A stretch of DNA of 64,000 nt from a virus. Position 1 is the stretch's first letter. Each line of letters starts with the position of its first letter. The notes under the pieces were generated by a model. The model worked only from the letters and a program-made list of their open reading frames with translations. It did not search any database and had not been told where the DNA came from. The DNA lies in IMG/VR virus record IMGVR_UViG_3300018890_000001, positions 628 to 64,627 of that record. The stretch is one strand, 5' to 3'. Shown here in pieces: positions 42,456 through 59,399 of the stretch. A program made the position numbers and the translations under genes.

Positions 42456-42876
42456 GTTGTAAAACTTCCCATTTTTCTTCAAGTACCAAGTCCATGATGT
42501 AAGCAATGCGCTTGACGAAGTACGGTGCGCCTTTACCTTCAAAACCCCAGTGAAGCGCGGCACTGGAACCGATATCCCAAGCTTCAACTTCTCGGAGCCA
42601 AGCCTGTTTCCAAGTTAGCGTCAATCGCTTGTCAGTTCGGAAGCAGGTTACTTCTTGTGAACACTTTTTGTGTTTTTCGATCCCGCGATACAGCAAAGGA
42701 AGCCATTTATCACAGAACTGATCGAGTGGCATAGAGCCACCAGGATTCATGATCAGTTTGTTGAGTGCGCTTAGTTCTGTTTTTTGGGGAACCGCATTCG
42801 GTCGAACAGTCGTTGTTAGCATGGTTGTACAACAGATTATGTCTCCTTCGATCGCCCCCACTTTTGTTGCAAGCAA
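42427..42876 (-). CDS. Putative HTH regulator
   Basis: 149 aa; divergent from the membrane/ATPase operon. Confidence 0.45.
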   Translation of the reverse strand: MLATKVGAIEGDIICCTTMLTTTVRPNAVPQKTELSALNKLIMNPGGSMPLDQFCDKWLPLLYRGIEKHKKCSQEVTCFRTDKRLTLTWKQAWLREVEAWDIGSSAALHWGFEGKGAPYFVKRIAYIMDLVLEEKWEVLQREKRKGNRN

Positions 42877-42917
42877 ATTAATCGGGCGATCTTTTTTATG
42901 TTAACGCTAGGGGTAAA

Positions 42918-42962
42918 AGGTGTCAAGGGTGTCAAGGGTGACAAAGGTGACAAAGGTGTTGA
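42918..42962. repeat. Five tandem 9-bp repeats RGGTGWCAA abutting a -35 box
   Basis: AGGTGTCAA, GGGTGTCAA, GGGTGACAA, AGGTGACAA, AGGTGTTGA. Confidence 0.9.
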
Positions 42963-42987
42963 CAATCCCGTAATACTCTATTAGATT
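42959..42987 (+). promoter_or_regulatory. Sigma70-type promoter of the 43020 operon
   Basis: TTGACA-N17-TAGATT, then GAGG RBS before ATG 43020. Confidence 0.65.
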
Positions 42988-43019: not shown

Positions 43020-43487
43020 ATGCAACTCAAAGAAATGGTCGGTTCCATATTCGCTGATTTCAGCAAACGAGTTTCTCACACGTTAACCAGCGGAAAAGGT
43101 TTAGGTGTTTATTACCGTACTCCAGAAGAGGCACGTCTACTTCAAGAGCAAGCGCAACTGGCAAAAGCAGCAGTAGATCCAACGGTTGCTAGCTTAAACG
43201 CGCAAATTGACATCATAAAAGCAGAAACAACAATGACGGTCGCCGGCATTAAATATGTTGGTGCGGAAGTAGAATCTCTAGCTGACAAGCTGGACGCGGT
43301 TGCTGACTTGTCAGATGTTGTAGCAAACGCTTCACCGAGAGCTCAAGCTGCTATTTCGCGAATGAACGAAAACGCTTTGGCGTTTGGCGACGAATTTGAG
43401 CGGATGCTCAACCCAGATTCTGGTCAACAATCTGGTCGGGCGATCGAACCAGCGCCTCAGCAGAAATTCCTGTACGCTTCGCGTTAA
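43020..43487 (+). CDS. Coiled-coil hypothetical protein
   Basis: 155 aa, Ala-rich helical. Confidence 0.7.
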   Translation: MQLKEMVGSIFADFSKRVSHTLTSGKGLGVYYRTPEEARLLQEQAQLAKAAVDPTVASLNAQIDIIKAETTMTVAGIKYVGAEVESLADKLDAVADLSDVVANASPRAQAAISRMNENALAFGDEFERMLNPDSGQQSGRAIEPAPQQKFLYASR

Positions 43488-43536
43488 CGCTTTCAATCAA
43501 GTCAACTAATCAAAAGGTAGTTTAGGATCATCGATC

Positions 43537-43815
43537 ATGAAATTCATAGATTTCGTTCCAGTCACTGGCAGTGTAATCGTAGTAGGCGTTTTAGCTGCAC
43601 TAGCTAAGTCAGCGATCCAACCGATCGCCCTTTACGCAATTTGTGGTTTAATTTGCATTGTTTTAGCAAAACTTTTGGGTCTCAAATATGTTGGGAGCCT
43701 TTCTGACGTTACCCGTTTACGTCCATCAGTCATTAACCTTCATTTGTGCGCGTCGCTTTTAGCTTCGGCGTTTGTTCTCGCTATCACACTCGGAGGCGAA
43801 AATGTACGACCCTAA
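43537..43815 (+). CDS. Small three-TM membrane protein
   Basis: Three hydrophobic segments. Confidence 0.65.
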   Translation: MKFIDFVPVTGSVIVVGVLAALAKSAIQPIALYAICGLICIVLAKLLGLKYVGSLSDVTRLRPSVINLHLCASLLASAFVLAITLGGENVRP

Positions 43816-44137
43816 AAAACACGTTGCTAAAGAGTGGCAGATTATCGGTTGCGGGGCTGTCACCGCAGTCGCTGTGACAGGTGCATTTTTTGCACCAATC
43901 AAGTCTGGCGAAATTCCGGTGGCTCGTTTGATGGCGTTTGCCATTGCAGGTTCAGCTCTGACCGCAGGAGCATTGATCGAAAAATCGAAAGAACCGCTCG
44001 ATCGCCAGAAAGAAGTGATAGATGCAAAAAATAGAAAAGTCTTTGCCAAGACACAGGGACTCGATGCTGCGTTTTTGATTGAGACTAAACAAGCTCAGAG
44101 TACAGAAGCGCTCGTCAAGGAGTGCGACAAAAACTAA
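43802..44137 (+). CDS. Two-TM + coiled-coil protein
   Basis: GGAGG then MYDPKK; two TM helices. Confidence 0.65.
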   Translation: MYDPKKHVAKEWQIIGCGAVTAVAVTGAFFAPIKSGEIPVARLMAFAIAGSALTAGALIEKSKEPLDRQKEVIDAKNRKVFAKTQGLDAAFLIETKQAQSTEALVKECDKN

Positions 44138-45066
44138 TGGCTAGCAAGCGAGAACCGACAGTCAAAGACGTTCAGAAGATTCTGGATTTGCTTAAGACAG
44201 AAGATCCGTACAAAGAAAATGGGGGTTTAATTTACTGGGACGGCACCGTAACGTCAGAGCACAATTACGCGATCTGTCGAAGTGCGATTTTACTCGATCT
44301 TGACTCTTATGACTGGAAGAAAGTTAAAGCACTTTGGATTTGCGCGGAGTTGCCAAAACCACCGGGCTATATCGATGAGTGCTGTGGTGGTTGTGAAGAT
44401 CGAGAACTTTCTCGATTAGAACTCTCGAAGTTCGATTACGCGGAATTTGTTTCTACAGTTCCGCGCAAGGATTGGGTAACTCCGGGTCAAAAAGCTTGGG
44501 CGGATAAATTTGGAATCCCGGTCATTGTTTATCAGCGACCTTACCCAAATCCAGCAAAAGGGGAAAAGTTCGGGACGTGGGATATTTACGATCCAATCAA
44601 AACTAATGATAAGGCGATCGGTGTAAATCTCGGTCAATTATCGAAGTTCGCTGGAATTTCCGCAGTGGAAGATCGGGAACATTTGACCACGGTTGCCAGG
44701 CTGGCAATCGAGGAACGCGAATTGCACGAAGCAGCTATCCATGCAGCTTGGTTGAAAATGTGCAACGCTCATAATGAGGGGCTTCAGGAATGCCAGTTGG
44801 CTTACGAGCAATTGCAAGCACAAACTGAAGTGTTCGATCGTCGCATAAAAACTGCGTTGCACCGTATCGATCGCCAAGAAATACAATCACTAGCGCTGTC
44901 TGCAACGAAAGCTGCGCCTGTAAATATTCGGGCGCGATCGAAATCTAATACGGCAACTCCAGTGATGTCGGTATTACCACCAGCTAGTGCTGAGAAATTG
45001 GACAGTCCGCTTTACACAACGCCCCCCATTGAAACGTTTCAGTATATAGAGGTGCGAAGAATTTAA
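44137..45066 (+). CDS. Hypothetical protein (alpha/beta N-domain + coiled coil)
   Basis: TAATG coupling; A...GIPV motif is loosely like DUF4406/flavodoxin-like folds. Confidence 0.6.
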   Translation: MASKREPTVKDVQKILDLLKTEDPYKENGGLIYWDGTVTSEHNYAICRSAILLDLDSYDWKKVKALWICAELPKPPGYIDECCGGCEDRELSRLELSKFDYAEFVSTVPRKDWVTPGQKAWADKFGIPVIVYQRPYPNPAKGEKFGTWDIYDPIKTNDKAIGVNLGQLSKFAGISAVEDREHLTTVARLAIEERELHEAAIHAAWLKMCNAHNEGLQECQLAYEQLQAQTEVFDRRIKTALHRIDRQEIQSLALSATKAAPVNIRARSKSNTATPVMSVLPPASAEKLDSPLYTTPPIETFQYIEVRRI

Positions 45067-45115
45067 TATGGTCTGGTGCATCTACCTATCCAACAAAGCA
45101 AACTAAAGGGGTTGA

Positions 45116-45499
45116 ATGAATCGCAAACTAACTGAGAAAGCCAAACATCGTGGTTGCGGGATTGAAATGTATGAAATGTGGAATTGTCATGAATTTGACG
45201 GAATTGGTTACTCCTACGTCATTATCAATCACCAAGGGGTACCGCGTACTGATCAAACCGATGAATACTGGATAGATAGTGTGTCATACGCACTGACAAA
45301 AGCAATCGCGTCAATAGACGAGGATCTTGATTCGTGGTGGGCGATTTCTTGTTTAGCGATGTACCGAAACAAGTTTGAGCATTTCGCTTTGGTTTATTTT
45401 GGCGAAGAGACGGGTGCGATCGCAAAAGGAATGGAAGAATTGCAAAAACGCTATCCCAAACACAAATATTCGGTGAAAATATTAGGCGCGGATATGTAG
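45116..45499 (+). CDS. Hypothetical protein
   Basis: 127-aa ORF. Confidence 0.6.
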   Translation: MNRKLTEKAKHRGCGIEMYEMWNCHEFDGIGYSYVIINHQGVPRTDQTDEYWIDSVSYALTKAIASIDEDLDSWWAISCLAMYRNKFEHFALVYFGEETGAIAKGMEELQKRYPKHKYSVKILGADM

Positions 45500-45814
45500 A
45501 TACAAGTCAACCATAAAAGTGAGAAAACGTAAATGCTAGTTACAACCAAGTATTGTATCAAGATTTTATGCAACTTTTAATATGGGAGATCTTGCTATTA
45601 ACTGCTAGTCCCTTCGTTACCACTGAAACGCAAACACCGACTTTTGTGAAGCAAGCTGCGATTTTACAGCGATTGTCGATCACCACCCGATCTTAACGGC
45701 GCTCATTCAAGCGGATGCAATGCTCAAAGTTTTTGGTTTACAGGGTGAGGACGCTGACGATTTGGTTAAGGGTGCATTGCGTTATGTAGCTATGTTGTGT
45801 TCTGAGGTACAGAA

Positions 45815-46021
45815 ATGAAAATTACGGTTGAAGGTACACCCGAAGAATGTGATACTTTGCTGAATGTATTGCGTGGTGTGAAAAAACTTGACAACAAGCT
45901 GGAAGTAGAAGTGGTCGCGATCGAAACCGTCGTAGAACCAGCACCTAGAGTACCGCTTGTGCTAATAAACGGTGGTTTGGGCGATCGAAAGCAGCGGGTG
46001 ATCGAACTACCTAAATTTTAG
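45815..46021 (+). CDS. Small hypothetical protein
   Basis: MKITVEGTPEEC... followed by terminator 46040-46075. Confidence 0.55.
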   Translation: MKITVEGTPEECDTLLNVLRGVKKLDNKLEVEVVAIETVVEPAPRVPLVLINGGLGDRKQRVIELPKF

Positions 46022-46260
46022 GGATACACTAATCAGCAAAAAAAAGACGCGATTTATAAAAATCGCGTCTTTTTTATCGTGTTCGTTGAAACTGCGTGAT
46101 ATTTGTGCAAATATCGGAACAATCGTTGCTTGTGTACTAATTGGGTGTAATAGTATTACACATAGGTCACTACACAAGACTTTTGTGTAATGCAAATTTG
46201 TGTAGCAAGTAAATCAAAGTTCAATTGTTGTAAGCGTTTGGGGAGGGTTGTATTTGTGTA

Positions 46261-46734
46261 ATGAATAATCTGGATGACACGCCCGCGATCGTGTATCAGG
46301 TTGCTGTATTAAATGCCCGCGAATTTGCTGCTTGCAGATCGGCTCTAACAAATGGGTACTCGATCAAGCGAAGTGAGCTTTATATCCTTAATCGGAGAAC
46401 TGGAAAGCTCGTAACGCGAAAAACGCTTTGGGAATGGGATTGCATATTGCAAGCACACCCCAAAATGATCAACTATCGTCGGGATAGCACGCAGCAATCC
46501 CTGTGGAATCCTGGGCAAGCCTGGAACCCTCATCAGGTATGGTGTTTAGAAAAAGTTGCGGACTTTATGGCGACCAAAGCCATCTACCGCAACACTGAAA
46601 GCAAAAAGAGAAAGTACAAAAGCAAAGGGGTGTTGCGGTTCCCAACTTACGAAGAACTCAACCAATACCTTGCCGACAATCACGAAAAATTCACCCACAA
46701 ACAATTTCTGAAGGAGAGATTTCATGTCAGTTAA
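46261..46734 (+). CDS. Hypothetical protein
   Basis: 157 aa; overlaps the next start. Confidence 0.65.
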   Translation: MNNLDDTPAIVYQVAVLNAREFAACRSALTNGYSIKRSELYILNRRTGKLVTRKTLWEWDCILQAHPKMINYRRDSTQQSLWNPGQAWNPHQVWCLEKVADFMATKAIYRNTESKKRKYKSKGVLRFPTYEELNQYLADNHEKFTHKQFLKERFHVS

Positions 46735-47419
46735 ATTTGATGATTTGGCTACCGAATTAAAGACCACCGTCGGTCAATTGACTACTCTGGCGGAAATCCT
46801 AAATGAGGAAACAGCCAATTCTGAAACACCATTAAATTTACCAATTGGAGCAAAGGTAAATTTGACTAACGAAGACGCTGTGCTGCTGCGAAATGAGTTC
46901 AAGAAAAGACAACAAAGTAATGTTCCGGCGAACCCCACTCCGCAGTTGAATCCCGGTCCGATGCGCAATACAAGCGATATTCAGCAAGCGGAAGCATCTG
47001 ACGTTCCAACTGCTCAGCAAGAAGCCCCGACGGCATCTGAAATGGATACTGTGCATATAAATTTCGAGCAGGCAATTTCTGCTCAAGAAACACAGGATCA
47101 ACAGCTTTTTGAGAACGATCTTTCCACAATCAAACACCATCAATTCCAGCTTGGTGTACTCAAGGCTATATATGGTGCAACGGCTAATACTGAAGGGTTT
47201 ATGGCAGGGCAGAATGCACTTGCAGCCGCTAGGAATGCACAGGCTGTTGAGGCGCTTAAGCGTAAAGCAAGGATGCTGGCGGGAACCGAGGGCGCTGATT
47301 TTTTGCCCAAATATCCAAATGTAGCCCAGCTCTCGACGGAGATCCCGGAAGCGCCGAAGTCACTGAATCAACAGAATTCAAACAGTTTGGATCGCCTGAA
47401 GAAATCGTCGCCGCAATAG
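46724..47419 (+). CDS. Possible N-terminal HTH + coiled-coil protein
   Basis: FDDLATELKTTVGQL at the N-terminus; Q/A-rich helices. Confidence 0.65.
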   Translation: MSVKFDDLATELKTTVGQLTTLAEILNEETANSETPLNLPIGAKVNLTNEDAVLLRNEFKKRQQSNVPANPTPQLNPGPMRNTSDIQQAEASDVPTAQQEAPTASEMDTVHINFEQAISAQETQDQQLFENDLSTIKHHQFQLGVLKAIYGATANTEGFMAGQNALAAARNAQAVEALKRKARMLAGTEGADFLPKYPNVAQLSTEIPEAPKSLNQQNSNSLDRLKKSSPQ

Positions 47420-47613
47420 ACAAGCTTCGCGAAGAGAATCGATCGGTAACGTTTATTCTCTTCGTTAGTTCAAATCAAAATCTGTGGAGTCGAATATTGG
47501 TTATGAATTGGCTACGGAATCGGATCAACAATTTTTTAGCAGCACCATCCCCCAGTTATACCGAATTTAGCTCTATTTGCGCTAATTTGATGGGTTTACC
47601 TTAAGGAGGCAAA

Positions 47614-47913
47614 ATGACAGTATCAAACGCAAACATTCCTTTCGATCGCGAGCAAGTCCGGTCTACTAAGCCTGAAGTTCAACAAGCGGAATCTCGCGTC
47701 ACTGACGAGTTTGAAAGAATTATTCCGATTGACGAACAGACTTTTAATCGCTTGCGATTAGGTGGAATTGATGAATCAGAGTATGGAACTATTGAAGACC
47801 GTTTGTTTGTATCGAGAACGGCATTTAATTCAAAAGGTGATTGCAGCCCTACTGACAATACCTGGAGGGTACTCAAGTCGATCGCCCGCAAAATTAGCAA
47901 AATAGGGGGTTGA
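47614..47913 (+). CDS. Hypothetical protein
   Basis: 99 aa; AAGGAGG RBS. Confidence 0.7.
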   Translation: MTVSNANIPFDREQVRSTKPEVQQAESRVTDEFERIIPIDEQTFNRLRLGGIDESEYGTIEDRLFVSRTAFNSKGDCSPTDNTWRVLKSIARKISKIGG

Positions 47914-47918
47914 ATTAA

Positions 47919-48728
47919 ATGAATCAAGGAAAAGGTGGGGCGCTAGTTCCGTTGGCAGACCGCATGATAGTTCCCACTGGTTCTGCGATGCTAGCGAACG
48001 ACTACAACATCGATGGCTTGGACATCCCAAGCACTTTGACGCTTGACGATTTTGAAGCCTTGGGTCAGCGGGCGATCGAGATCCAATGGCTTTTAGATAA
48101 TTTACCAACTATCAAAGATAAGTTGATGCTTGTCATCAGGGGGCAGGTTTCCTGGGAGCAAATGAAGTGTGAATTGATGAAAGCTGGGTACAAGGGTGCC
48201 GGCGATATCAAAAAGAGCACTATCGACGCTCTTATTGCAGAACAAGCTTTCAATGCCAAGGTTGCCCAGCAGGATTACAGATTAAGCGCAAACACGAAGA
48301 AATTCGGTCAAGAGACTACCGAAGTCAATGCCTTTACGGATTCGTTAATCGAGCTGGATTTGGCGTCACTCAGAGCGCGGAACGCTGCAATTCTCGAACA
48401 AAAAAGACAAGCTGCCAACAGTGAAGATGCCGCAGCTATCGCAGAATGGGAGACTGCTCGAAAAAACAACGATCTACAAGCAGCTTCAATGTTGCTTCAG
48501 TACGGAACCGCAGCTCGATCGCACCCTAAATTTCCCGGTGGAGCGCAGGCGATCGGTGGTTCCTCCCGGCAACAAGCGTCATTCGGTGGTTTTAGTGGAA
48601 CCCGTCAACAACCCAAAGATCGTTTAAAAATCGAACTCGAAGGTAATGTCGCTGGCGCAGCAAACCGTTTTGCTAACCGCGCTGGCAATGGCGTCAAAAA
48701 GCTGAAAAATTTCTTTTTTGGAGGGTAG
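47919..48728 (+). CDS. Coiled-coil hypothetical protein
   Basis: 269 aa, helical, with a Gly-rich tail. Confidence 0.7.
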   Translation: MNQGKGGALVPLADRMIVPTGSAMLANDYNIDGLDIPSTLTLDDFEALGQRAIEIQWLLDNLPTIKDKLMLVIRGQVSWEQMKCELMKAGYKGAGDIKKSTIDALIAEQAFNAKVAQQDYRLSANTKKFGQETTEVNAFTDSLIELDLASLRARNAAILEQKRQAANSEDAAAIAEWETARKNNDLQAASMLLQYGTAARSHPKFPGGAQAIGGSSRQQASFGGFSGTRQQPKDRLKIELEGNVAGAANRFANRAGNGVKKLKNFFFGG

Positions 48729-48730
48729 TC

Positions 48731-49126
48731 ATGTTTTCGTTAGCTAATCGACCAGAGCCACCCACAGTTGAAGTTGATGTGGAAGTCCCGAAATCCGCAT
48801 ATTATCTACGTTTGAAATCCCAAAGCAACGTAGCCTTTTTGGGGATCTGCTTTGGGGTGGGAGTGGTCGCTACCAATGTTATCCGGCTGTTCCCGGAATA
48901 CTACGTTTTTTACGCTCTCCTGTCTGTCTCAGGAATAATTGCATTGCTTGCGTTTCCTTCGGCAGACCTTGGAGCTAAATATTTGTGGAGATGGGGTGCA
49001 ATCGCGCTTCTGGGTGGTTTAGCGCTGCCTTGGTGGGAAATCCTACATCTCATCCCTAAATGGGTGTGGATAGGCTTATTTTTGGCGATTGTTGGGATTG
49101 TAGTGGCGATCGGAGGTAATCACTAA
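48731..49126 (+). CDS. Four-TM membrane protein
   Basis: Four hydrophobic segments. Confidence 0.7.
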   Translation: MFSLANRPEPPTVEVDVEVPKSAYYLRLKSQSNVAFLGICFGVGVVATNVIRLFPEYYVFYALLSVSGIIALLAFPSADLGAKYLWRWGAIALLGGLALPWWEILHLIPKWVWIGLFLAIVGIVVAIGGNH

Positions 49127-50910
49127 TGAAGCACATCGCTGCAAAGCTTGTTTTAAGTGGTTTAGCGATTTTAATGGCGGTCGCGCCAGTTCCATTTGAA
49201 AAGTGGGCTTGGCAGCGAGTTGGGCTTGGCATTCTGGGATTGGCGGGAATAACTTCTACTAAGTCCAAAATTGACCAGGAGATGGAGGAACAGCATTTAG
49301 TTGATGTTCAAGTTTTTGAAGAAAAACTGTACGAAAGACAACTTACTGAATTACAGCGCGGGCTAGCCCTGGAAGCTGCGCGACAACAAGAAGCTATTCG
49401 GTTTGACTTACAAACTAAAATGGCGACCGCTGACTACCAAGGCGCGTTTGTCACCATCATGGAAGAAAAGCACCCTTACTACCTTGATGCTTTACAAGCA
49501 CAACAACAAGCTGCTTTAGAGGCTCAAAAACGAGCGTATTCTGCTGAAGGTGGATTGGTTGACCGTGTTGGTGAAATGATTGAAGTTGGGGTGATCGGAG
49601 CTGAGACAGGTATTAACCTAGAAACTGGTGTACAGCAAAATTCAATCCCTAAATATTTAAGGAGTTTCGTTTCAACTACTTGTTTGGCTTGGGGCGCGCA
49701 AGGTAGCGGTAAATCGTGGTTTGTTCGCTATTTAGCAAAAATTAAGGTTGATAAAGGATATCGCGTTATCGTCTTCGATCCAAACAGCAATCAAGCTGCT
49801 TGGAGAGGTGTAGAACTCATCAATACTTACGAAGCTATTGAAGAGAAGATGCGTTGGTATATCGAAGAAGTAATGTCGCGCTACCAAGTGTTTACAGCTT
49901 CTGATTATGACGAAGACGTTTGGCGGGCGCAACTTTGGACTGACGGTAAAGCAATTAGTGTTATTTGCGAAGAGGTTACAACCTATGCCGATTTTATCCC
50001 AGACACCGAATTAGTTAAACAGTTTATCAAGGTGGCGACTACATTAAGTCGAAAGCAAGAGATGCCAGTTACGTTTGTTACCCACAACAATACGCAAACT
50101 TGTTTCGGCAATATCAAAGGTCTTGGTCAGTTAATCGCGGATATGCAACAAATTAAGTTGATTCCCAAAACAGACCCACAAACAGATCAGCCAGTTGCAT
50201 CTGGTCGGGCGCAGGTGCGATCGAACAGCGAACAAAATTGGGTGGATGTTACAGTACCGAGAATTACCTCAAAAATTACAGATTTTACCCGAATAACACA
50301 GGTTATTTCTACCCAAGAACAGTCAGATATTGTTGATACTGAGACATCGAATCCTGTGGATAATTCCGTAGAGCTAGATCAAAACGAGATTAATTTGATT
50401 ACCAGTATCGAAACTCAAAAAGAGCAACTCGACGCGACTTTCAATAAAACCTACAATCCGCTAGATCACTTCATGCAAGAAGCTAGTCAAGAGCAGTTGG
50501 AAGAGATGATCAAAAGTTGGCGAGCGTTGGCTGATACGTCGCGATCAGACGTATCAGATACTTTGATACAAAAAAACGCATCTGATACGCATCAATCGCC
50601 AGAACCTGCACAGGATAACGGTTCGCGACGTATTTGGGATGTATCAGATTTCCGTAAAAACCTACCAGATCGCCAAGAGGAGGTGATGTTTCGAGAGTTG
50701 GATACATTTTTTCAAAACGTATCTCGTAGTCCCAACAGAATTATTAAAGAAGCGTGGGGACTCTCAAATGGGAATGTTTACAGTTCAATTGGAAAACCAT
50801 GTTTTGTCTATTTAGTGACAAAATATGGCACTGACGAGCACAAGACTTCCCCGAAGTTCGCAAAACACATTGGAGAATACTTGGGTTCTGATGACGCTAA
50901 TGACGAGTAA
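49126..50910 (+). CDS. Membrane-anchored P-loop ATPase (FtsK/HerA/TraD-like)
   Basis: Two N-terminal TMs, coiled coil, Walker A GAQGSGKS, VIVFDP, Walker B ICEEV, LSRK, and a possible C-terminal wHTH. Confidence 0.75.
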   Translation: MKHIAAKLVLSGLAILMAVAPVPFEKWAWQRVGLGILGLAGITSTKSKIDQEMEEQHLVDVQVFEEKLYERQLTELQRGLALEAARQQEAIRFDLQTKMATADYQGAFVTIMEEKHPYYLDALQAQQQAALEAQKRAYSAEGGLVDRVGEMIEVGVIGAETGINLETGVQQNSIPKYLRSFVSTTCLAWGAQGSGKSWFVRYLAKIKVDKGYRVIVFDPNSNQAAWRGVELINTYEAIEEKMRWYIEEVMSRYQVFTASDYDEDVWRAQLWTDGKAISVICEEVTTYADFIPDTELVKQFIKVATTLSRKQEMPVTFVTHNNTQTCFGNIKGLGQLIADMQQIKLIPKTDPQTDQPVASGRAQVRSNSEQNWVDVTVPRITSKITDFTRITQVISTQEQSDIVDTETSNPVDNSVELDQNEINLITSIETQKEQLDATFNKTYNPLDHFMQEASQEQLEEMIKSWRALADTSRSDVSDTLIQKNASDTHQSPEPAQDNGSRRIWDVSDFRKNLPDRQEEVMFRELDTFFQNVSRSPNRIIKEAWGLSNGNVYSSIGKPCFVYLVTKYGTDEHKTSPKFAKHIGEYLGSDDANDE

Positions 50911-50949
50911 TCTATGTTTAATTAATCAAACTACCAAACCAGGGGTTAA

Positions 50950-51255
50950 ATGCAACTTATCCAATTTCTTTTTTTGATTGGGGTTTCGTGTCTACTTTTC
51001 ATGTTTCTTTTTTCAGGGGTGATCGGTTACTTCTTTTACTCTTTGTCACACGGTGCTCCGCCGCTGGAAGTAACGACACCAACACTTCTTCATTGGGAAA
51101 ACCTACCGAAAGTTTCCAAGAAAACGTTACTTCCAGCGATTACTATGCTTACCGCTCTCTGGGTGTTAATCGGTTCAGGGGAATCTAAGAAAGAAGACGA
51201 CAAAAGTGGAAAAAGCAAAGGACGTACTCGGAGACGCCACCAAGATGAAGATTAA
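50950..51255 (+). CDS. Two-TM membrane protein with basic tail
   Basis: Hydrophobic segments and a K/R-rich end. Confidence 0.65.
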   Translation: MQLIQFLFLIGVSCLLFMFLFSGVIGYFFYSLSHGAPPLEVTTPTLLHWENLPKVSKKTLLPAITMLTALWVLIGSGESKKEDDKSGKSKGRTRRRHQDED

Positions 51256-51280
51256 AAATTCACACTCTTGAGGAAAACCC

Positions 51281-51976
51281 ATGTATTTAGAAAAGACGGA
51301 TTGTGACAACTTTGTTGAAGACCTTTGGATCAATAATATGGATGAAGGGATTCAGGTTGTAGGTGCTAAAGATTCGTTCAAGTTAAACGCTATTTGCCAG
51401 CTACTTGAAAAATTAAGTCCAGACCCTACTGAGATTTTTGTGTTGAGTCCAGATATCGAGCAGAAACAATTTTGGGATTTGGCAGGTATCCCGATCGCCC
51501 AAGATTTGAATCAAATTGCGTCCTCGCTCCGTCAATTACTTCAGGAATTGCATAAAAGGCAAAGCATTTTCCGCATTTTTATCGGACATCACATCAACTG
51601 CGTAATCGAGATCGATGATTTGCATGATGCACTTGTTGAGCGAGGGCTCAGTTTGGGTATTGAGTACGACGCGCGAGAATTGAATGAAGCTGTGGCAGAA
51701 CTTCGAGATCTTGGTCCAAGAGTTGGCATTACTGTTATTGCATGTACAAAATCTGAACCGTATTGGAACCACTGCCTTTATTCGGGAGAATCAGCGATCC
51801 GATTCGCGAAAACCGCGAGTCAAGATGTTCTTGAGGAAGTTAGTAACCAAGCATACCCGTGTTGCTTTACGATCGCCAACGATGTCTATTTAATGTCGGT
51901 GACAGACCATCTTACGTCGTCTATACCTCGGGTGATCGCTTTGATTTCTGAAAACAAACGGGCGATCGCGCTGTAG
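51281..51976 (+). CDS. Degenerate FtsK-like ATPase domain (no Walker A)
   Basis: ELHKRQ...VIEIDD...LGPRVGITVIACT resembles the FtsK EM..R...IIIDE...GRA.GI.LI.ATQ pattern. Confidence 0.45.
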   Translation: MYLEKTDCDNFVEDLWINNMDEGIQVVGAKDSFKLNAICQLLEKLSPDPTEIFVLSPDIEQKQFWDLAGIPIAQDLNQIASSLRQLLQELHKRQSIFRIFIGHHINCVIEIDDLHDALVERGLSLGIEYDARELNEAVAELRDLGPRVGITVIACTKSEPYWNHCLYSGESAIRFAKTASQDVLEEVSNQAYPCCFTIANDVYLMSVTDHLTSSIPRVIALISENKRAIAL

Positions 51977-52021: not shown

Positions 52022-52282
52022 ATGATTTCTCAAAATTACATCGGCGTCGAGTCAATCAATATTCATTCTTCAGCGAACGTGACAATTCATAAGGGAGATG
52101 CGTTTCAAGTAAAGATTACACCACTATCTGAGGGCAGATACAATATAGCGAATTATGGTATAATATGTATAGAAAAGAAAATGACACTACACAGATTCAA
52201 CAAAGCGAATAAATCGAGACAACTCGAAGCAGCCATTGAAGTAGAAGATCGTCACTTTTGTAAAACCAAAATAAATATTTAA
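52022..52282 (+). CDS. Hypothetical protein
   Basis: 86 aa; AGGAGG RBS. Confidence 0.55.
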   Translation: MISQNYIGVESINIHSSANVTIHKGDAFQVKITPLSEGRYNIANYGIICIEKKMTLHRFNKANKSRQLEAAIEVEDRHFCKTKINI

Positions 52283-52332: not shown

Positions 52333-52490
52333 TTGAAAACGTTAAACACAGTCAGTATAGTGCGCGACATTATACAGATTAAGACCGAGAGATGAGAATT
52401 CTTGCGGTCAAAACTTGCTCCCACCAGAGGTGGATCTAGAGCGAACAAAAAGCCCGCCTTATCCTGACTGGATTTGGAGGGCTTTTTGTT
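52333..52490 (+). ncRNA. Orphan promoter-to-terminator unit (structured RNA or 15-codon ORF)
   Basis: TTGAAA-N17-TATAGT, two hairpins, then terminator AAAAAGCCC...GGGCTTTTT. Confidence 0.35.
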
Positions 52491-52542: not shown

Positions 52543-52857
52543 ATGCGCGTACATCTTAACAATCATGACAATCAATGTTCGGTAAAAGAGTATAATAGCC
52601 TGCAAAGAGAATATGGTTGTTGTTTTGAAAAACTAAAGGTAACGGATAGGTGTATGATTTTGGCTGTTTTAGCTGTTTCATTGCACAATTTGCTTATGAA
52701 TGATCCGTTTAGAAGTATGACTACGTATAATTTGTATGAAACTGCTATGTCAATAATGGCAAGAGATTGCTGTACAAGGTTGATGGGCTTGACTTTTGAA
52801 CATATGACGTGTGCCTGTAGCGCACTTCTGTCTCAATTGAACTTACCACGAGAATAA
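52543..52857 (+). CDS. Hypothetical protein
   Basis: 104-aa ORF ending at a terminator. Confidence 0.55.
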   Translation: MRVHLNNHDNQCSVKEYNSLQREYGCCFEKLKVTDRCMILAVLAVSLHNLLMNDPFRSMTTYNLYETAMSIMARDCCTRLMGLTFEHMTCACSALLSQLNLPRE

Positions 52858-52858
52858 A

Positions 52859-52909
52859 ATAAAAAAAGCGGGCGATCGAATATATTGATTCGATCGCCCG
52901 CTTCTTTTT
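52859..52909. terminator. Bidirectional terminator, CGATCG-core family
   Basis: AAGCGGGCGATCGAAT / ATTCGATCGCCCGCTT. Confidence 0.8.
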
Positions 52910-54091: not shown

Positions 54092-55454
54092 TTGATGTGA
54101 GCGTGAAGCCCTACGAGCCACCGAAGATGCGCGTCGGGACAAAAGCGCAGCCAAAAAATAAATTGAGCTGTAGCAAATAAATAATCGTTTTTGTGCGTTA
54201 TGATGATTTTATCAGTATTCCGCACACCTGATAAATGTATAAAGCTTACAAGTACAGAATTTACCCCACAAGTGATCAAGAGGTTTTGCTCGCAAAATCT
54301 TTTGGGTGCGCACGATGGTTCTGGAACTACGCTTTAAACCTGTGTCAAGAAACCTACAAGCATACTGGTAAGGGATTGTCTAGGGGCTACATACAAGGCT
54401 TACTTCCTACACTCAAAAAAGAGTACGAATGGCTAAAAGAGCCATATGCTCAATGTTTGCAGGCGGTTGCGCTCAATCTATCTACAGCCTACAAAAACTT
54501 TTTTGAGAAGCGGGCGATGCCCCCAAAGTTTAAAAACAAGTACAGTAGACAGTCGATCAGCTATCCGCAAAACATAAAGTTCGATGGGGACTATATCAAC
54601 TTACCTAAGATTGGTCTAGTTTTCTGTCGAAGACACCGTGATTTCGTAGGTGACATTAAAACTGTTACCGTTTCTCGAAACCCAGACGGTAAACACTTTG
54701 TTTCTGTTTTGATTGACGACGGGAAAGAACACCCTGAGCTAGTCGCAGTAGATAAGACTATTGGCATTGACGTGGGGTTGACTCATTTTGCAGTCACCAG
54801 TGATGGTTCTAAATTTGACAATCCCAAGCATTTCGTCAAGCGTCAACGGAACTTAAAGCGCAAACAACAGAAGCTTTCTCGCAAAAAGAAAGGCAGTCAA
54901 AACCGGAAAAAGGCAAAACGGGCTGTAGCCAAAGTCCACTCCAAAATTGCCAGATGTCGCGAAGATTTTCTACATAAGCTATCCCGCAAGATAGTCAACG
55001 AAAACCAAGTTATTGCAGTAGAAAATCTCAATATCAAGGGCATGGTCAAAAATCATAATCTAGCCAAAGCTATTAGTGACGTTGGTTGGGGGATGTTTTG
55101 CACGATGCTTAAGTACAAGTCGAAGAACGAAGGAAGAAGACAATACGTCGAAATCGATAGATGGTTCCCTAGCTCTAAGACTTGCCATGTATGCCTAAAT
55201 CAAATCAAGCAGCTTACGCTTGACGTTAGAGCATGGACTTGCAAACATTGTGAAACACACCATGACCGTGATATCAACGCAGCAATCAATATTAGAAATG
55301 AAGCCTTGCGGATTTTGGCATTAGGAATTAGTGCTTCTGCCTGTGGAGGGGATGTAAGTCGATCCGGTAAAACTTCGGTTTTGTTGGACGCTATCCCCAT
55401 TGAATCAGGAAGCCAGACGATGACCGATTAATTGGCCGTCGTCTGGTAATTCAC
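54092..55454 (+). mobile_element. IS200/IS605-family element carrying tnpB only
   Basis: Right end GAAG-hairpin(CCAGACGA/TCGTCTGG)-TAATTCAC at 55454. Left-end-like GAAGCC...GCGTCGGGA near 54105; left boundary approximate. Confidence 0.8.
54235..55431 (+). CDS. tnpB: RNA-guided endonuclease TnpB
   Basis: YKYRIYPT N-terminus, RuvC IGIDVG / VENL / HDRDINAA with all catalytic acids present, Zn ribbon CHVC...CKHC. Confidence 0.95.
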   Translation: MYKAYKYRIYPTSDQEVLLAKSFGCARWFWNYALNLCQETYKHTGKGLSRGYIQGLLPTLKKEYEWLKEPYAQCLQAVALNLSTAYKNFFEKRAMPPKFKNKYSRQSISYPQNIKFDGDYINLPKIGLVFCRRHRDFVGDIKTVTVSRNPDGKHFVSVLIDDGKEHPELVAVDKTIGIDVGLTHFAVTSDGSKFDNPKHFVKRQRNLKRKQQKLSRKKKGSQNRKKAKRAVAKVHSKIARCREDFLHKLSRKIVNENQVIAVENLNIKGMVKNHNLAKAISDVGWGMFCTMLKYKSKNEGRRQYVEIDRWFPSSKTCHVCLNQIKQLTLDVRAWTCKHCETHHDRDINAAINIRNEALRILALGISASACGGDVSRSGKTSVLLDAIPIESGSQTMTD

Positions 55455-56306: not shown

Positions 56307-59288
56307 TCACATACTGTCGAGAATCGAAGGTCCGGTATTAATTACCAGGCGCTCAACTATTCCTGTGGGTGTCCACACAAAATTCGCCGTTAGTACGCCG
56401 TTAATGACTTCAACAAGCTGACCGCCACTTTGTCCAACGGTTGAATTTGAGTCGGCGTCTTGTCCGGTGTTAATTCGGATTGCTTCATCAAAAGTCAGGT
56501 ACTGCGAAAATACACCTTTGCTGTATTCGCGACGCGCAAAACTTCGCAAAATCATGCGGAACTGAGCTGCGAGGTCTGGTTGATTTGGTCGGAAAACCAA
56601 CTCTTGCAAGTTATCAACTTCGATAAAGATCCGGTTGTAGTTTGACTGGCAGCGTCGAATGTGGAGAAAAATGTAAGCCGAACTAAGGCTTGGCGCTCTT
56701 GCGCCCCAGACGATGATATTGCCCTCGCTATACTTGAGCATTTGAACGCCCGAAGTGTTCGCAATTACCTCATCGGATCGCCCAATTTCAAACGGCAACC
56801 CGATCGCCCTTGGTAATCTGGCTGCGCGTCCGGCAAACATGACGTGATACCCAGCGTTGTTTACCGCAAACAGGGATTCGCCGCCCATGATGTCACCAAC
56901 GGCAGTAACCATCCGCTTCCCAGCACCGAATGGAGACGCGATGTAGATATAACTGGGCGCTGCTACGCTAGCAAAATCATTCCGACCTAATTCTTGTTTG
57001 ATGTAGGATTCGATCGCCGCTGCTGTTGTTAGGTAGACAGGCAATTCATAACGGAATTCGTAAGACCGCGCTTCTGCGTAAGTTGCACCGGCTTTGTTTA
57101 CGGTGATAGAGCTGATGCCCGGAAACGCCATACGCACCAATCCGAGGTTGCGACCGTAAACCGCGTTTTCTACGTGATTCGTGTCAGGATCTACGTACTT
57201 TGTCCAATAGTAGGGAATTGTGTTTGCTGTGTTGCCGTCGTACCCACCTTCGAGGGCGATCGGATGATTCACGAAAAATGAATTCCCGGTTTGCGTTGCA
57301 ACAGTTAGATCGTTGCCAACACCTACGTAAAAATAACCTGCTTTTTTAGCCTTCGTTTGCGCGGGAGCGTTGCTGGTAAATGCACGTTCGAGCAACACTT
57401 GAGTATCGCTAACAATCCGCACAATTTTCCGAGCTTCTTTTGAGTGGGGGCTATAAATATAGTCTCCAATCACCAGCGAAGTCAAAAATGTCGTACCCGC
57501 GCCGTTAACGGTTGTTCCGGTTGACGAAATTGAACCTTCTAAATCTACAGGAGCGTAAGCTTCTTTGATTCGGATCAGATTTCTGTATTGATCGTAAGGA
57601 GAGATGTACAGTGAGCTGCCAATCGTCTTGGTGTAGTCGAGATCGATTACCGTGTAAAGTCGGGTTTGAGTCAGCGCCAGAATTTTACTACCGGCGATCG
57701 GTCGCACGTCGGAGTCTTCTGCTGTAGTGTACGTACTTGTCCACAGCGATCGCGCTCGAATCCATGCCAAGATATTTTCGCCAGAGCTGCGATAGGCAAC
57801 ATTTCCCACAGTATCGGAAACAACTGTGTCCACGAAAAGTGGGTCGTTCGGATCGAGACTGGCATCGGGAATGTGCAACACCTGCGAATTGTTGAAAAAT
57901 ACTCGCAGTGAGAAATGTGTCTCTGGTCTGCTTTCACCTAGGGCGGTTTCAACGGTTAACCCTTCGCCTATCGGCTGTAAAAGTTTGACAGTTGCCCGTT
58001 TCGATTGCTTGGCGAGACTTACGTCGGTGAAGTCACTGGAAAATGGCTTCTCAATTTTTAACGAAGTTGCGGTGGGGATTGCCATAACTTTGATTGCTTC
58101 TCCAGCGCGCAACGGATCGACAATATAATCACCAACCTGAACTTGAGCGGTAAATGTCGTACCTGTGCCTGTAACTGTTAAACCTTGTTGTTCAATTTGA
58201 GTACCGGCGGAGAGCGCTGCTGTAAATCCAGAAGTTAGTGTCAAGACCGTCGCGCTGGTAATTGCCTCGATTTTGCGTCCTTGGCGCGCCCCACCAATCG
58301 TTGCATAGATGGTGTCGCCCACATTCAGATCCGTAGTGAATGCGGTCCCAACACCAGTAACCGTTTTGTTGTCGCGCATCATAGTTTGATCCGCGACGTT
58401 ACCCCCGGTATAAGAGTCGTTTACCGTCAGCGTAGTGTCGGAGGTAATTGACACGATTACGCGCCCCTCTGTGCCGAGATAGATATTGTCGCCAACGTCT
58501 AAATCTGTCGAGAAAGTGGTTCCCGTACCAGTCAAAATGTTGTCGTTGACCGTTACTGTTCCGGCGATCGGCTGCAATAGCGGAAATGTTACAGTGCCGG
58601 TAATATTCGGATAGCGATCGTAACTGGCGGTGCCACCCAGTACGCTTGGTCCGGAGATGCCTTCTTGCAGTAAGTTCCACTGTGCACCACAGGTGAAAAC
58701 GGTTTCGCCCGCGCGACCAATAGCCTGAGTATTTGCAATAATGGTAAATCTTTTGCCTGGAGCAGACTCGAATTCCACCTCAGCCCCAACATACTCGTTC
58801 GCCAACGTACCTGGCGCAATGATAGTAAAACTTCGAGCGGAAGCTACCAGCACGGGTGTTAATGCAATTTCAGACGCTTGACCTCCCCAACGACCTTCGT
58901 TCGCGGCTTCAATTTCAAGCGCGTCTGCACCAAGCCAGTTTTTTAAAACTTTCTTGGCGCGTTTCGCTTTACCGTCCACATCAATCCTGGTTAGCCACAG
59001 TAAGCCGGCTCCGGCACCGTTTTGCCAAAAACCTTCAACTGCGTCTGGAGTTTGTTGGCTGGCATCCGGATATAAAGCCCAATTGGGAGCTTTCGGATCG
59101 CCAAAAACTTCTAAATACTGCTTGCGAGACGTAACCGGAATCGGCGTTGACATCGGTCCGCGTTTCATGATTCCCCCGAACCAAACGCTACCGTAGCGAG
59201 GATCTGCCAAAATATTCGATGCCGGTCTTTCTTCGACTGAAACCCCTGGAGCGCCTGGAGGTGCACCGTATCTGCGAACGACGACCAT
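56307..59288 (-). CDS. Contractile tail sheath protein with inserted repeat domains
   Basis: N-terminal PGVSVEE...GIMKRGP...ITSRKQY..VFG; C-terminal IIVWGAR...LHIRR...LVFRPN...FVWTP..VERLVI; 4 GTGTxF...VGD inserts. Confidence 0.9.
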   Translation of the reverse strand: MVVVRRYGAPPGAPGVSVEERPASNILADPRYGSVWFGGIMKRGPMSTPIPVTSRKQYLEVFGDPKAPNWALYPDASQQTPDAVEGFWQNGAGAGLLWLTRIDVDGKAKRAKKVLKNWLGADALEIEAANEGRWGGQASEIALTPVLVASARSFTIIAPGTLANEYVGAEVEFESAPGKRFTIIANTQAIGRAGETVFTCGAQWNLLQEGISGPSVLGGTASYDRYPNITGTVTFPLLQPIAGTVTVNDNILTGTGTTFSTDLDVGDNIYLGTEGRVIVSITSDTTLTVNDSYTGGNVADQTMMRDNKTVTGVGTAFTTDLNVGDTIYATIGGARQGRKIEAITSATVLTLTSGFTAALSAGTQIEQQGLTVTGTGTTFTAQVQVGDYIVDPLRAGEAIKVMAIPTATSLKIEKPFSSDFTDVSLAKQSKRATVKLLQPIGEGLTVETALGESRPETHFSLRVFFNNSQVLHIPDASLDPNDPLFVDTVVSDTVGNVAYRSSGENILAWIRARSLWTSTYTTAEDSDVRPIAGSKILALTQTRLYTVIDLDYTKTIGSSLYISPYDQYRNLIRIKEAYAPVDLEGSISSTGTTVNGAGTTFLTSLVIGDYIYSPHSKEARKIVRIVSDTQVLLERAFTSNAPAQTKAKKAGYFYVGVGNDLTVATQTGNSFFVNHPIALEGGYDGNTANTIPYYWTKYVDPDTNHVENAVYGRNLGLVRMAFPGISSITVNKAGATYAEARSYEFRYELPVYLTTAAAIESYIKQELGRNDFASVAAPSYIYIASPFGAGKRMVTAVGDIMGGESLFAVNNAGYHVMFAGRAARLPRAIGLPFEIGRSDEVIANTSGVQMLKYSEGNIIVWGARAPSLSSAYIFLHIRRCQSNYNRIFIEVDNLQELVFRPNQPDLAAQFRMILRSFARREYSKGVFSQYLTFDEAIRINTGQDADSNSTVGQSGGQLVEVINGVLTANFVWTPTGIVERLVINTGPSILDSM

Positions 59289-59399
59289 AATTTTATCCTT
59301 TGAGAATTGAACACAAAAAAATCGATGCTGTGAAAGCACCGATTAAAGTTGGCTGGCAAATATTTAGGTTTGAATTCTAACGGCGAAACCGATATTGAA

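Follow-up and report, generated by a model that had tools for sequence, protein, structure and literature searches.

In Streptomyces, the TraB, clt and Spd components of plasmids such as pSVH1 and pIJ101 serve both conjugation and intramycelial plasmid spreading, and TraB recognizes its DNA by means of a C-terminal winged helix that binds the 8-bp repeat array of clt. Motors of the EccC type are built from both active and degenerate FtsK-like domains, which can be encoded by two separate genes. We analysed a stretch of 64,000 nucleotides of viral DNA (the window; bases 628–64627 of IMG/VR record IMGVR_UViG_3300018890_000001, which is 199,763 bp long and rated complete by CheckV) in which an earlier note, made from the letters alone, had proposed that the genes at positions 43020–51976 form a TraB-like system for moving a tailed phage between the cells of a cyanobacterial filament. 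Our analysis establishes that this block is a conserved mobile-element module built around a membrane-anchored motor ATPase distinct from the phage terminase, and shows that a core of three genes is of common descent in phages, plasmids and integrated elements of filamentous cyanobacteria. We take the hosts of the phage to be filamentous soil-crust cyanobacteria. That the module pumps DNA at the membrane or septum and serves cell-to-cell spread, we regard as possible, well short of probable. No description of this operon was found in the literature. For conjugation, the phylum has been credited with a single type, the VirB4-based class MPF-C (PMC12282955).

The ATPase encoded by the third core gene was modelled with AlphaFold2 from 35 homologs. 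The model and a hydropathy scan place a transmembrane (TM) hairpin at amino acids (aa) 4–46 and a long predicted helix at aa 27–139 (the part of the earlier coiled-coil claim that we examined), followed by a RecA-type core at aa 172–390 (per-residue confidence, pLDDT, ~90), a linker and a C-terminal helical domain at aa ~504–590. The Walker A motif GAQGSGKS occupies aa 190–197 and the Walker B motif ICEE lies at about aa 279–283; K196, E282/E283 and the arginine finger R309 are invariant or nearly so across the 35 sequences. DUF87 (PF01935, “HerA central”) is the only Pfam family above threshold, matching aa 172–403 with 31.2 bits against a cut-off of 23.2. The P-loop, the DUF87 match and the hairpin bear out the earlier description of a membrane-anchored P-loop ATPase. 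PHROG searches gave a weak P-loop match to phrog_2666, and the only alignment to VirB4 and TrwB in searches of PDB sequences spans Walker A to DPN and is non-significant (E = 0.16–1.3 for TrwB).

We ranked the structural neighbours of the predicted core by exhaustive VIA-align comparison, using Z scores. The best match is TcpA, the coupling protein of pCW3 (Z = 18.0, root mean square deviation 3.0, 208 aligned residues), followed by FtsK (Z = 16.5, deviation 3.6, 220 aligned residues), and VirB4 (13.0), HerA (12.7), TrwB (12.7) and the STIV2 packaging ATPase (11.9) are found lower down. Foldseek is concordant, with E-values of 4e-7 for FtsK and 7e-7 for TcpA. The HAS-barrel of HerA proper is not seen, as the N-terminal 170 residues are predicted to consist of the TM hairpin and the long helix, with no β-strands. 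By its predicted fold, the ATPase is an FtsK/TcpA-like motor, closer to TcpA and FtsK than to HerA or to enzymes of packaging. In placing a TM hairpin ahead of the motor, the model has a coupling-protein-like architecture, the layout of TcpA, of type IV coupling proteins and of TraB. The earlier note had considered that the enzyme might instead group with packaging or HerA enzymes; we find a fold nearer to TcpA and FtsK, and a separate terminase in the genome. Folded alone, the C-terminal domain is predicted to be a five-helix bundle (pLDDT 63–79) with no significant structural match (best Z = 5.6).

Like the phage ATPase, TcpA of Clostridium perfringens (PDB 6o1x/6o1w) has N-terminal TM segments and one FtsK-like NTPase domain and is encoded on a mobile element. 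The two share only ~15% identity, and the phage ATPase differs in its long helical stalk and its unrelated C-terminal helical domain; the phage genome also lacks a relaxase and a VirB4-like protein, the other Tcp proteins not having been searched by name. FtsK/SpoIIIE translocases have the same RecA-type hexameric pump fold and membrane anchoring, whereas the phage ATPase has no PF01580 domain, no recognizable gamma domain, two TM segments rather than four, and dedicated membrane partners. With the TraB/clt/Spd systems the module has in common a single membrane-associated FtsK-like motor, small membrane proteins, the absence of a relaxase and a filamentous multicellular host. However, neither a recognizable winged helix nor a convincing clt array was found in the phage module, and the two are likened by design only; the cyanobacterial host has a Gram-negative envelope of two membranes as well as septal junctions, and the carrier is a tailed phage. 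The place of the Spd proteins is taken in this comparison by four small TM proteins of 92, 121, 131 and 101 aa, to which the ATPase adds its N-terminal hairpin; the likeness is one of size and membrane prediction, and our hydropathy scan gives one protein fewer than the five counted earlier. The earlier TraB-like reading is partly supported, by the FtsK/TcpA-like fold and coupling-protein-like architecture, the plasmid homologs and the degenerate partner.

The record is a contractile-tailed jumbo phage of ~200 kb, since it encodes a portal (phrog_2662), a large terminase TerL of the gpA (lambda) type (genome positions 192404–194452, E = 1.4e-12) and a tail sheath (window positions 56307–59339, matching PDB sheath proteins with E = 2.3e-10); the earlier assignment to a tailed phage was therefore correct. 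DNA polymerase, helicase, ribonucleotide reductase and endolysin-like proteins are also encoded. Because the genome has its own gpA-type TerL and portal elsewhere, we rule out that the ATPase is the packaging enzyme. The Pfam families Terminase_6N and Terminase_6C gave no match. In the whole 199,763-bp genome there is no Pfam match to PF03432 (Relaxase), PF01076 (Mob_Pre) or PF03135 (CagE_TrbE_VirB, VirB4-type), which extends to the full record what had been claimed on relaxase and VirB4. ParA, ParM and a tyrosine integrase were likewise not found in the phage genome. Phage DNA was found in biocrust metagenomes of two studies, and no RNA dataset is among the listed holders. The last open reading frame (ORF) of the record, beyond the window (G000:C1:198100-199728, minus strand; L011:13100-14728), encodes a methyl-accepting chemotaxis protein (MCPsignal 6.5e-33, plus a 4HB_MCP sensor). 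Either the phage has acquired this gene from a host, or the ORF belongs to host flank and the record would then represent a prophage.

The block is not a chance arrangement, as five related phage contigs preserve its synteny at protein identities as low as 30–40%. Synteny covers the whole block in L012, L013/L014, L018 and L019, and three of these contigs (L013, L018 and L019) also share the flanking sheath and tube genes (85–98% identity). A second viral contig of ~189 kb carries a reduced core at 30–40% identity. The module is a core feature of these phages. Among the isolated phages of INPHARED, neither the ATPase nor the 269-aa core protein had a significant match.

Outside phages, tblastn found the motor core on 39 plasmids at 45–52% identity. 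All of these come from Nostoc, Tolypothrix, Calothrix, Microchaete, Scytonema or Kovacikia, and they include pCC7120delta and pCC7120epsilon; the plasmid search that had been proposed thus recovered the ATPase with the same three-gene core, each time in a filamentous cyanobacterium. A scan of one genome per species gave 45 loci, mostly on plasmid-sized contigs and with up to four copies per genome, and every named holder belongs to a filamentous genus, with several orders represented (Nostocales, Leptolyngbya/Stenomitos/Kovacikia or Microcoleus/Coleofasciculus/Symplocastrum). Matches occur in 13 of 401 sampled cyanobacterial genomes, all 13 of at least 5.2 Mb. The ATPase family as a whole is modest, with 275 proteins at E ≤ 1e-10 in an exhaustive profile search of 1.84 billion representatives. 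One distant member, P0228 from Dendronalium phyllosphericum (WP_214436628.1), carries the NCBI name [quoted passage not shown], which we treat as a lead only; the rest of the family is named hypothetical, ATP-binding or DUF87.

Phage, plasmid and integrated loci have a common gene order: a soluble protein of ~220–270 aa, a polytopic membrane protein of 130–190 aa and the anchored ATPase, with the membrane-protein gene overlapping the ATPase start. A membrane protein of this size is found at the second position in at least 30 cellular loci. Profile comparison demonstrates that the soluble proteins of phages, plasmids and integrated elements are homologous: phage and cellular alignments match with an hhalign probability of 95.3% (E = 2e-8), hmmsearch finds L068 at 3.9e-13 and L028 at 2.5e-12, and the L068 homolog itself matches phrog_31528 at 0.0024. 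Deeper alignments were needed to make this link, as shallow ones gave nothing. The cellular homologs measure ~220–240 aa and hold the same position on plasmids and integrated elements. For the core membrane protein, the sequence link between phage and cellular versions is borderline (E ~1e-3), and profile comparison of the other accessory proteins of the phage and plasmid operons gave no detectable similarity. The plasmid operon proteins do not match the three PHROGs matched by the phage genes.

The Nostocales plasmid operons (pCC7120delta, WP_010999524; pCC7120epsilon, WP_010994159; pNPUN05, WP_012412833) resemble the phage block in their motor core (45–52%), gene order and homologous soluble protein. 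They differ in that parM is their first gene and a response-regulator gene often their last, and the N- and C-terminal parts of their ATPases and their other accessory proteins are unrelated in sequence to those of the phage. Their ATPases are annotated only as hypothetical or ATP-binding. In four of five plasmid loci inspected (L001, L002, L016 and L017, all Nostocales), a co-oriented gene for a response-regulator transcription factor lies directly 3′ of the ATPase gene. Closer relatives of the window core are found in L067 and L068. The L068 element encodes a tyrosine integrase, a DnaB-type primase-helicase, helix-turn-helix (HTH) regulators and a VanY-type cell-wall hydrolase, and none of its 10 ORFs scanned matches a capsid or tail PHROG; L067, a 22.9-kb contig, has the same set with an M15 peptidase but no called integrase.

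In the mechanism that we tentatively favour, a ring-forming FtsK/TcpA-type motor would sit on its helical stalk with the N-terminal hairpin in the cytoplasmic membrane. It would be co-produced with the translationally coupled polytopic membrane protein, the soluble 269-aa protein, the three remaining small membrane proteins and a catalytically dead copy of the motor domain. At the septum between neighbouring cells of the filament, the small membrane proteins would form a membrane channel for the element's double-stranded DNA, which the motor would pump across, and the replicating phage genome could thereby reach adjacent cells without virions, as plasmids do through TraB and Spd in the Streptomyces mycelium. 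We infer DNA as the substrate, the septal site, the direction of transport and the benefit to the phage. Three observations favour DNA transport at septa: the module is found on replicons of every kind whose named hosts are all filamentous, a relaxase is absent from the phage and, by typing, from one third of the plasmids, and a wall hydrolase adjoins the module in some elements. The lack of a relaxase in these replicons fits a TraB-like route for double-stranded DNA; many of the other plasmids carry MOBV or MOBP relaxases.

Several results weigh against this mechanism. PF01580 (FtsK_SpoIIIE) has no match at E ≤ 0.1 in the genome and none in the hmmscan of the ATPase, and at the same threshold PF02534 (T4SS-DNA_transf) matches neither the ATPase nor anything else in the genome. 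In the structural ranking, the EccC/EssC export motors reach Z scores of 14–15.2, which is nearly the level of FtsK. There is no winged-helix entry, as in TraB or the gamma domain of FtsK, among the matches of the C-terminal domain, and the block contains no convincing clt-like array, both of its repeat clusters being located at promoters. Pfam scans found no cell-wall hydrolase in the phage module. The restriction to filamentous hosts may partly reflect the genomes searched and the specificity of the search pattern. Finally, the module is co-oriented behind parM in 28 of 37 cellular loci of at least 12 kb, a linkage that argues for segregation no less than for transfer.

It is this linkage that keeps alive the partitioning alternative raised in the earlier note. 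In such a role, the motor would act at the closing septum or the cell poles and keep copies of the replicon in both daughter cells, as a replicon-specific counterpart of FtsK/SpoIIIE. The FtsK-like fold suits this role, and on the plasmids the neighbours of the module are usually an actin-like ParM/StbA gene, a divergent ParG and, adjacent, a CyRepA1-type replication gene. The phage genome, for its part, lacks a ParA, ParM or tyrosine integrase of its own, and Bacillus phages carry FtsK/SpoIIIE-like genes that are said to segregate the phage genome into the spore (PMC8597652). However, the phage module has no parM partner, the L067 and L068 elements carry the module though integrated, four extra small membrane proteins are unexpected for a septal DNA-clearing pump, and trapping in septa should be a rare event for small multicopy plasmids. 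We consider segregation the main rival to the transfer mechanism, though unlikely in itself.

The history of the ATPase gene bears on another alternative. Compared with the ATPases of the sibling phages P0009–P0014, the window ATPase is 45–85% identical in the N-terminal anchor and stalk and 67–96% identical in the C-terminal domain, but the motor cores share only 20–25% identity and have differing Walker A motifs. Conversely, the window core is 62–64% identical to cores of cellular elements, the ends of whose ATPases are unrelated. We had tried the description of a conserved core with variable ends among the phages and rejected it, as the sibling phages show the reverse. In the core tree, a single clade (SH-aLRT 99) unites the phage cores that are of the same type as the window's, and with midpoint rooting this clade lies amid cores from cyanobacterial assemblies and metagenomes, the genomic context of which was checked for a few. 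The conflict between core and end identities, together with the placement in the tree, indicates that the phage gene and cellular mobile elements have traded a motor cassette. In some sibling phages, replacement has also affected the neighbouring gene for the 99-aa protein and the partner gene.

Such turnover is common in conflict systems, and the module could serve in superinfection or entry exclusion of rival phages and elements, or in interference with the homologous machines of host plasmids. The cassette-like replacement of the core and its neighbours would fit this, as would a weak PADLOC match of the P-loop region of the ATPase to mad8 (E = 7.7e-7, 26.9 bits). Yet no defence family is matched beyond this generic P-loop region, PADLOC giving nothing significant for nine other block proteins, and the core module is part of the backbone of dozens of small plasmids, where it stands beside replication and partition genes. 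Recombination with resident homologs would equally yield the mosaicism. A conflict role is, in our view, quite unlikely.

The gene two places downstream of the ATPase encodes a 231-aa degenerate paralog of the motor core. Its P-loop reads GAKDSFKL in place of the GAQGSGKS of the ATPase, whereas acidic Walker-B-like residues are retained; together with the hhalign match (Table 1), this confirms the FtsK-like partner lacking Walker A that had been picked out before. A complex prediction of the motor core with this partner gave a score of 0.00, which speaks neither for nor against pairing. In L012, a stand-alone copy of the motor core of 220 aa with an intact Walker A motif GNSGSGKS (L012:12160-12822, plus strand) adjoins the L012 partner and shares 83% identity with the core of the complete ATPase encoded two genes before it. 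This copy looks like a duplication intermediate on the way to the degenerate partner, and its position suggests an origin of the partner through duplication followed by decay.

EccC/EssC of type VII systems likewise have an FtsK-like domain that is anchored in the membrane and accompanied by a degenerate one. Here, though, there is one active domain instead of three, and the degenerate domain is a separate gene that follows a membrane-protein gene. The ATPase and its separate degenerate domain could accordingly energize the export of small proteins of the module, several small soluble proteins being encoded in the block; EccC-type motors, with their own active and degenerate domains, are among the best structural matches. 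However, no protein of the module matches WXG100 or another type VII family at E ≤ 0.1, TcpA and FtsK outscore EccC, and the family is tied to plasmids, integrated elements and phages rather than to chromosomal secretion loci. Protein export is very unlikely on this evidence.

Another tailed cyanophage with a filamentous host, the Planktothrix phage PaV-LD (HQ683709), encodes a TM-anchored P-loop ATPase in its ORF127L–ORF129L region; this ATPase (ORF127L, annotated as FtsK/SpoIIIE) comes after proteins of 269 aa and 143 aa and before small membrane proteins. ORF122–130 have no sequence similarity to the window proteins beyond the Walker A/P-loop, and a peptidase M23 gene (ORF123L) follows within the PaV-LD block, whereas the window block has no hydrolase. 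A virion or lysis role (DNA delivery at infection, membrane assembly or control of lysis), for which this ATPase beside a peptidase and the abutting sheath and tube operon of the window could be cited, is highly improbable, as the module is also found on plasmids and integrated elements without recognizable virion genes, a terminase and a portal are encoded separately in the phage genome, 40 kb separate the block from the endolysin-like genes, and the likeness to the PaV-LD genes ends at the P-loop.

At stake is how plasmids and phages move within and between the filaments of multicellular cyanobacteria. The broad proposal that mobile elements of these hosts share a relaxase-free single-motor machine for DNA transfer, by which the phage genome spreads from cell to cell without virions and whose motor cassette is traded with host plasmids, is rather unlikely as a whole. 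If true, it would be a second, independent instance of Streptomyces-style spreading of double-stranded DNA by a single motor in a multicellular bacterium, and a tailed phage using such a system would blur the boundary between infection and conjugation. Since pCC7120delta and pCC7120epsilon, with their homologous operons, belong to a genetically tractable model strain, the question is directly testable. Even should its function prove to be segregation or exclusion, the module is a conserved and unannotated backbone component of cyanobacterial mobile elements. What the window adds is a 200-kb myophage as carrier without a hydrolase in the block, a degenerate motor paralog, and a motor core swapped between sibling phages and cellular elements. 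Such wholesale swapping is unusual for an ATPase.

The features of the block are listed in Table 1. Within 43020–51976 there are 14 plus-strand ORFs of at least 60 aa, and two more precede the final terminator, in keeping with the count of about 15 co-oriented genes made earlier. Several genes are tightly coupled: the 231-aa acidic protein starts before the preceding gene ends (46724 and 46734), the first and second core genes are 2 nt apart (48728/48731), and the stop of the second core gene and the start of the ATPase gene share base 49126. The hairpin at 46038–46075, which has equivalents in L013, L018 and L019, divides the block into two units; together with the hairpin at 52444–52490, it suggests two or three transcription units. 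Beyond its end, the block adjoins the convergent operon of tail genes (sheath and tube).

Table 1. Genes and regulation-like sites of the block (window coordinates; TM, predicted transmembrane segments).
Feature	Position	Strand	Basis
9-bp tandem array (AARGGTGWC, ~5 units)	42916–42960		Tandem Repeats Finder: period 9, 4.9 copies, 88% matches
Sigma-70-like promoter match TTGACA-17-TAGATT	42959–42987	+	Consensus scan 10/12; pattern match only
155-aa soluble protein, first gene	43020–43487	+	ORF; weak DUF948, E = 0.011, below cut-off
92-aa membrane protein, 3 TM	43537–43815	+	Hydropathy; 58–83% identity in related phages
121-aa membrane protein, 2 TM	43772–44137	+	Hydropathy; 52–80% identity in relatives
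314-aa soluble protein, Cys-rich patch	44122–45066	+	58–84% identity in relatives
127-aa soluble protein	45116–45499	+	53% identity to L066:10540-10917
68-aa protein, end of first transcription unit	45815–46021	+	ORF; relatives compared
Palindromic hairpin, A-/T-run flanks	46038–46075		Inverted repeat; resembles bidirectional terminator
Cluster of 6–7 copies of TTGTGTAA/TTACACAA	46129–46260		Local k-mer clustering
157-aa basic protein	46261–46734	+	26 K+R vs 15 D+E; 32–93% identity in relatives
231-aa acidic, low-complexity protein	46724–47419	+	31–84% identity in relatives
99-aa soluble protein	47614–47913	+	40% identity in L018 vs 80% in L019; replaced segment
269-aa soluble protein, core gene 1	47919–48728	+	phrog_31528 at 4.5e-23
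131-aa polytopic membrane protein, 4 TM, core gene 2	48731–49126	+	Hydropathy; phrog_36329 at 3.7e-12
594-aa membrane-anchored motor ATPase, core gene 3	49126–50910	+	DUF87 at 3.1e-7; AlphaFold2 model; VIA-align
101-aa membrane protein, 2 TM, basic tail	50950–51255	+	Hydropathy; 34–69% identity in relatives
231-aa degenerate paralog of motor core	51281–51976	+	hhalign vs ATPase core: probability 73%, E = 3e-5
86-aa protein, end of second unit	52022–52282	+	ORF; relatives compared
GC-rich hairpin, A-/T-run flanks, terminator-like	52444–52490		Inverted repeat
104-aa protein, last co-oriented gene	52543–52857	+	62–73% identity in L013, L019
Strong bidirectional terminator	52861–52908		20-bp stem with GCGATCGC palindrome; inverted repeat

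NCBIfam has no family for any block protein. The 155-aa protein of the first gene is 48–76% identical to its counterparts in L013, L018 and L019, and the real start of the 121-aa membrane protein is probably an internal ATG. The 314-aa protein has no match in Pfam, PHROG, NCBIfam, PADLOC or PDB, and an Atlas search with the 269-aa core protein gave no informative match. In the distant phage L066, the homolog of the 127-aa protein is encoded directly 3′ of the ATPase gene. The 157-aa basic protein is kept even in L066; its weak Atlas leads to MerR/HTH-like clusters (TM-score 0.50–0.57, a lead only) make it a candidate DNA-binding regulator.

The promoter-like site at the start of the block lies 33 nt 5′ of the first gene, and the 9-bp array ends at its –35 box. 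Of this array, L019 has two or three copies and L013 one, whereas the L018 version is degenerate; it is a candidate operator or activator site. The TTGTGTAA/TTACACAA cluster, which contains an inverted repeat TACACAA-N5-TTGTGTA and the last copy of which overlaps the start codon of the gene for the 157-aa protein, is kept in L018 and L019 and occurs as a variant in L013. In L012, three 21-bp direct repeats (unit about ACCTGGTTTTACTCGTGGGAT) are found at the corresponding place (L012:6810-6880), so that the relatives carry differing repeat sets at the same intergenic position. Both repeat clusters look like operators because they are sited in promoter regions, and this is most likely what the TTGTGTAA/TTACACAA cluster is; either one could conceivably be a clt-like recognition site of the pump.

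A motif of ~24 nt (consensus about ACTTTTGTnGCAAGnAAAT) occurs 5′ of the block (42859–42882), 5′ of the second unit (46178–46218) and at the end of the second unit (52253–52276), and may be a phage-specific promoter or regulator site. The HIP1 palindrome GCGATCGC is frequent in the block, being found in the stem of the final terminator, at 47878–47895, at 48515–48532 and elsewhere; this abundance fits a long adaptation to a cyanobacterial host. Downstream of the block, a gene for an IS605-family TnpB/OrfB protein (54235–55431, plus strand; OrfB_IS605 at 7.8e-31, with HTH_OrfB_IS605 and Cas12f1-like TNB domains) lies between a gene for a 353-aa protein and the tail tube gene. As these two flanking genes are directly adjacent in the related phages L013 and L018, the TnpB/OrfB gene is a recent insertion.

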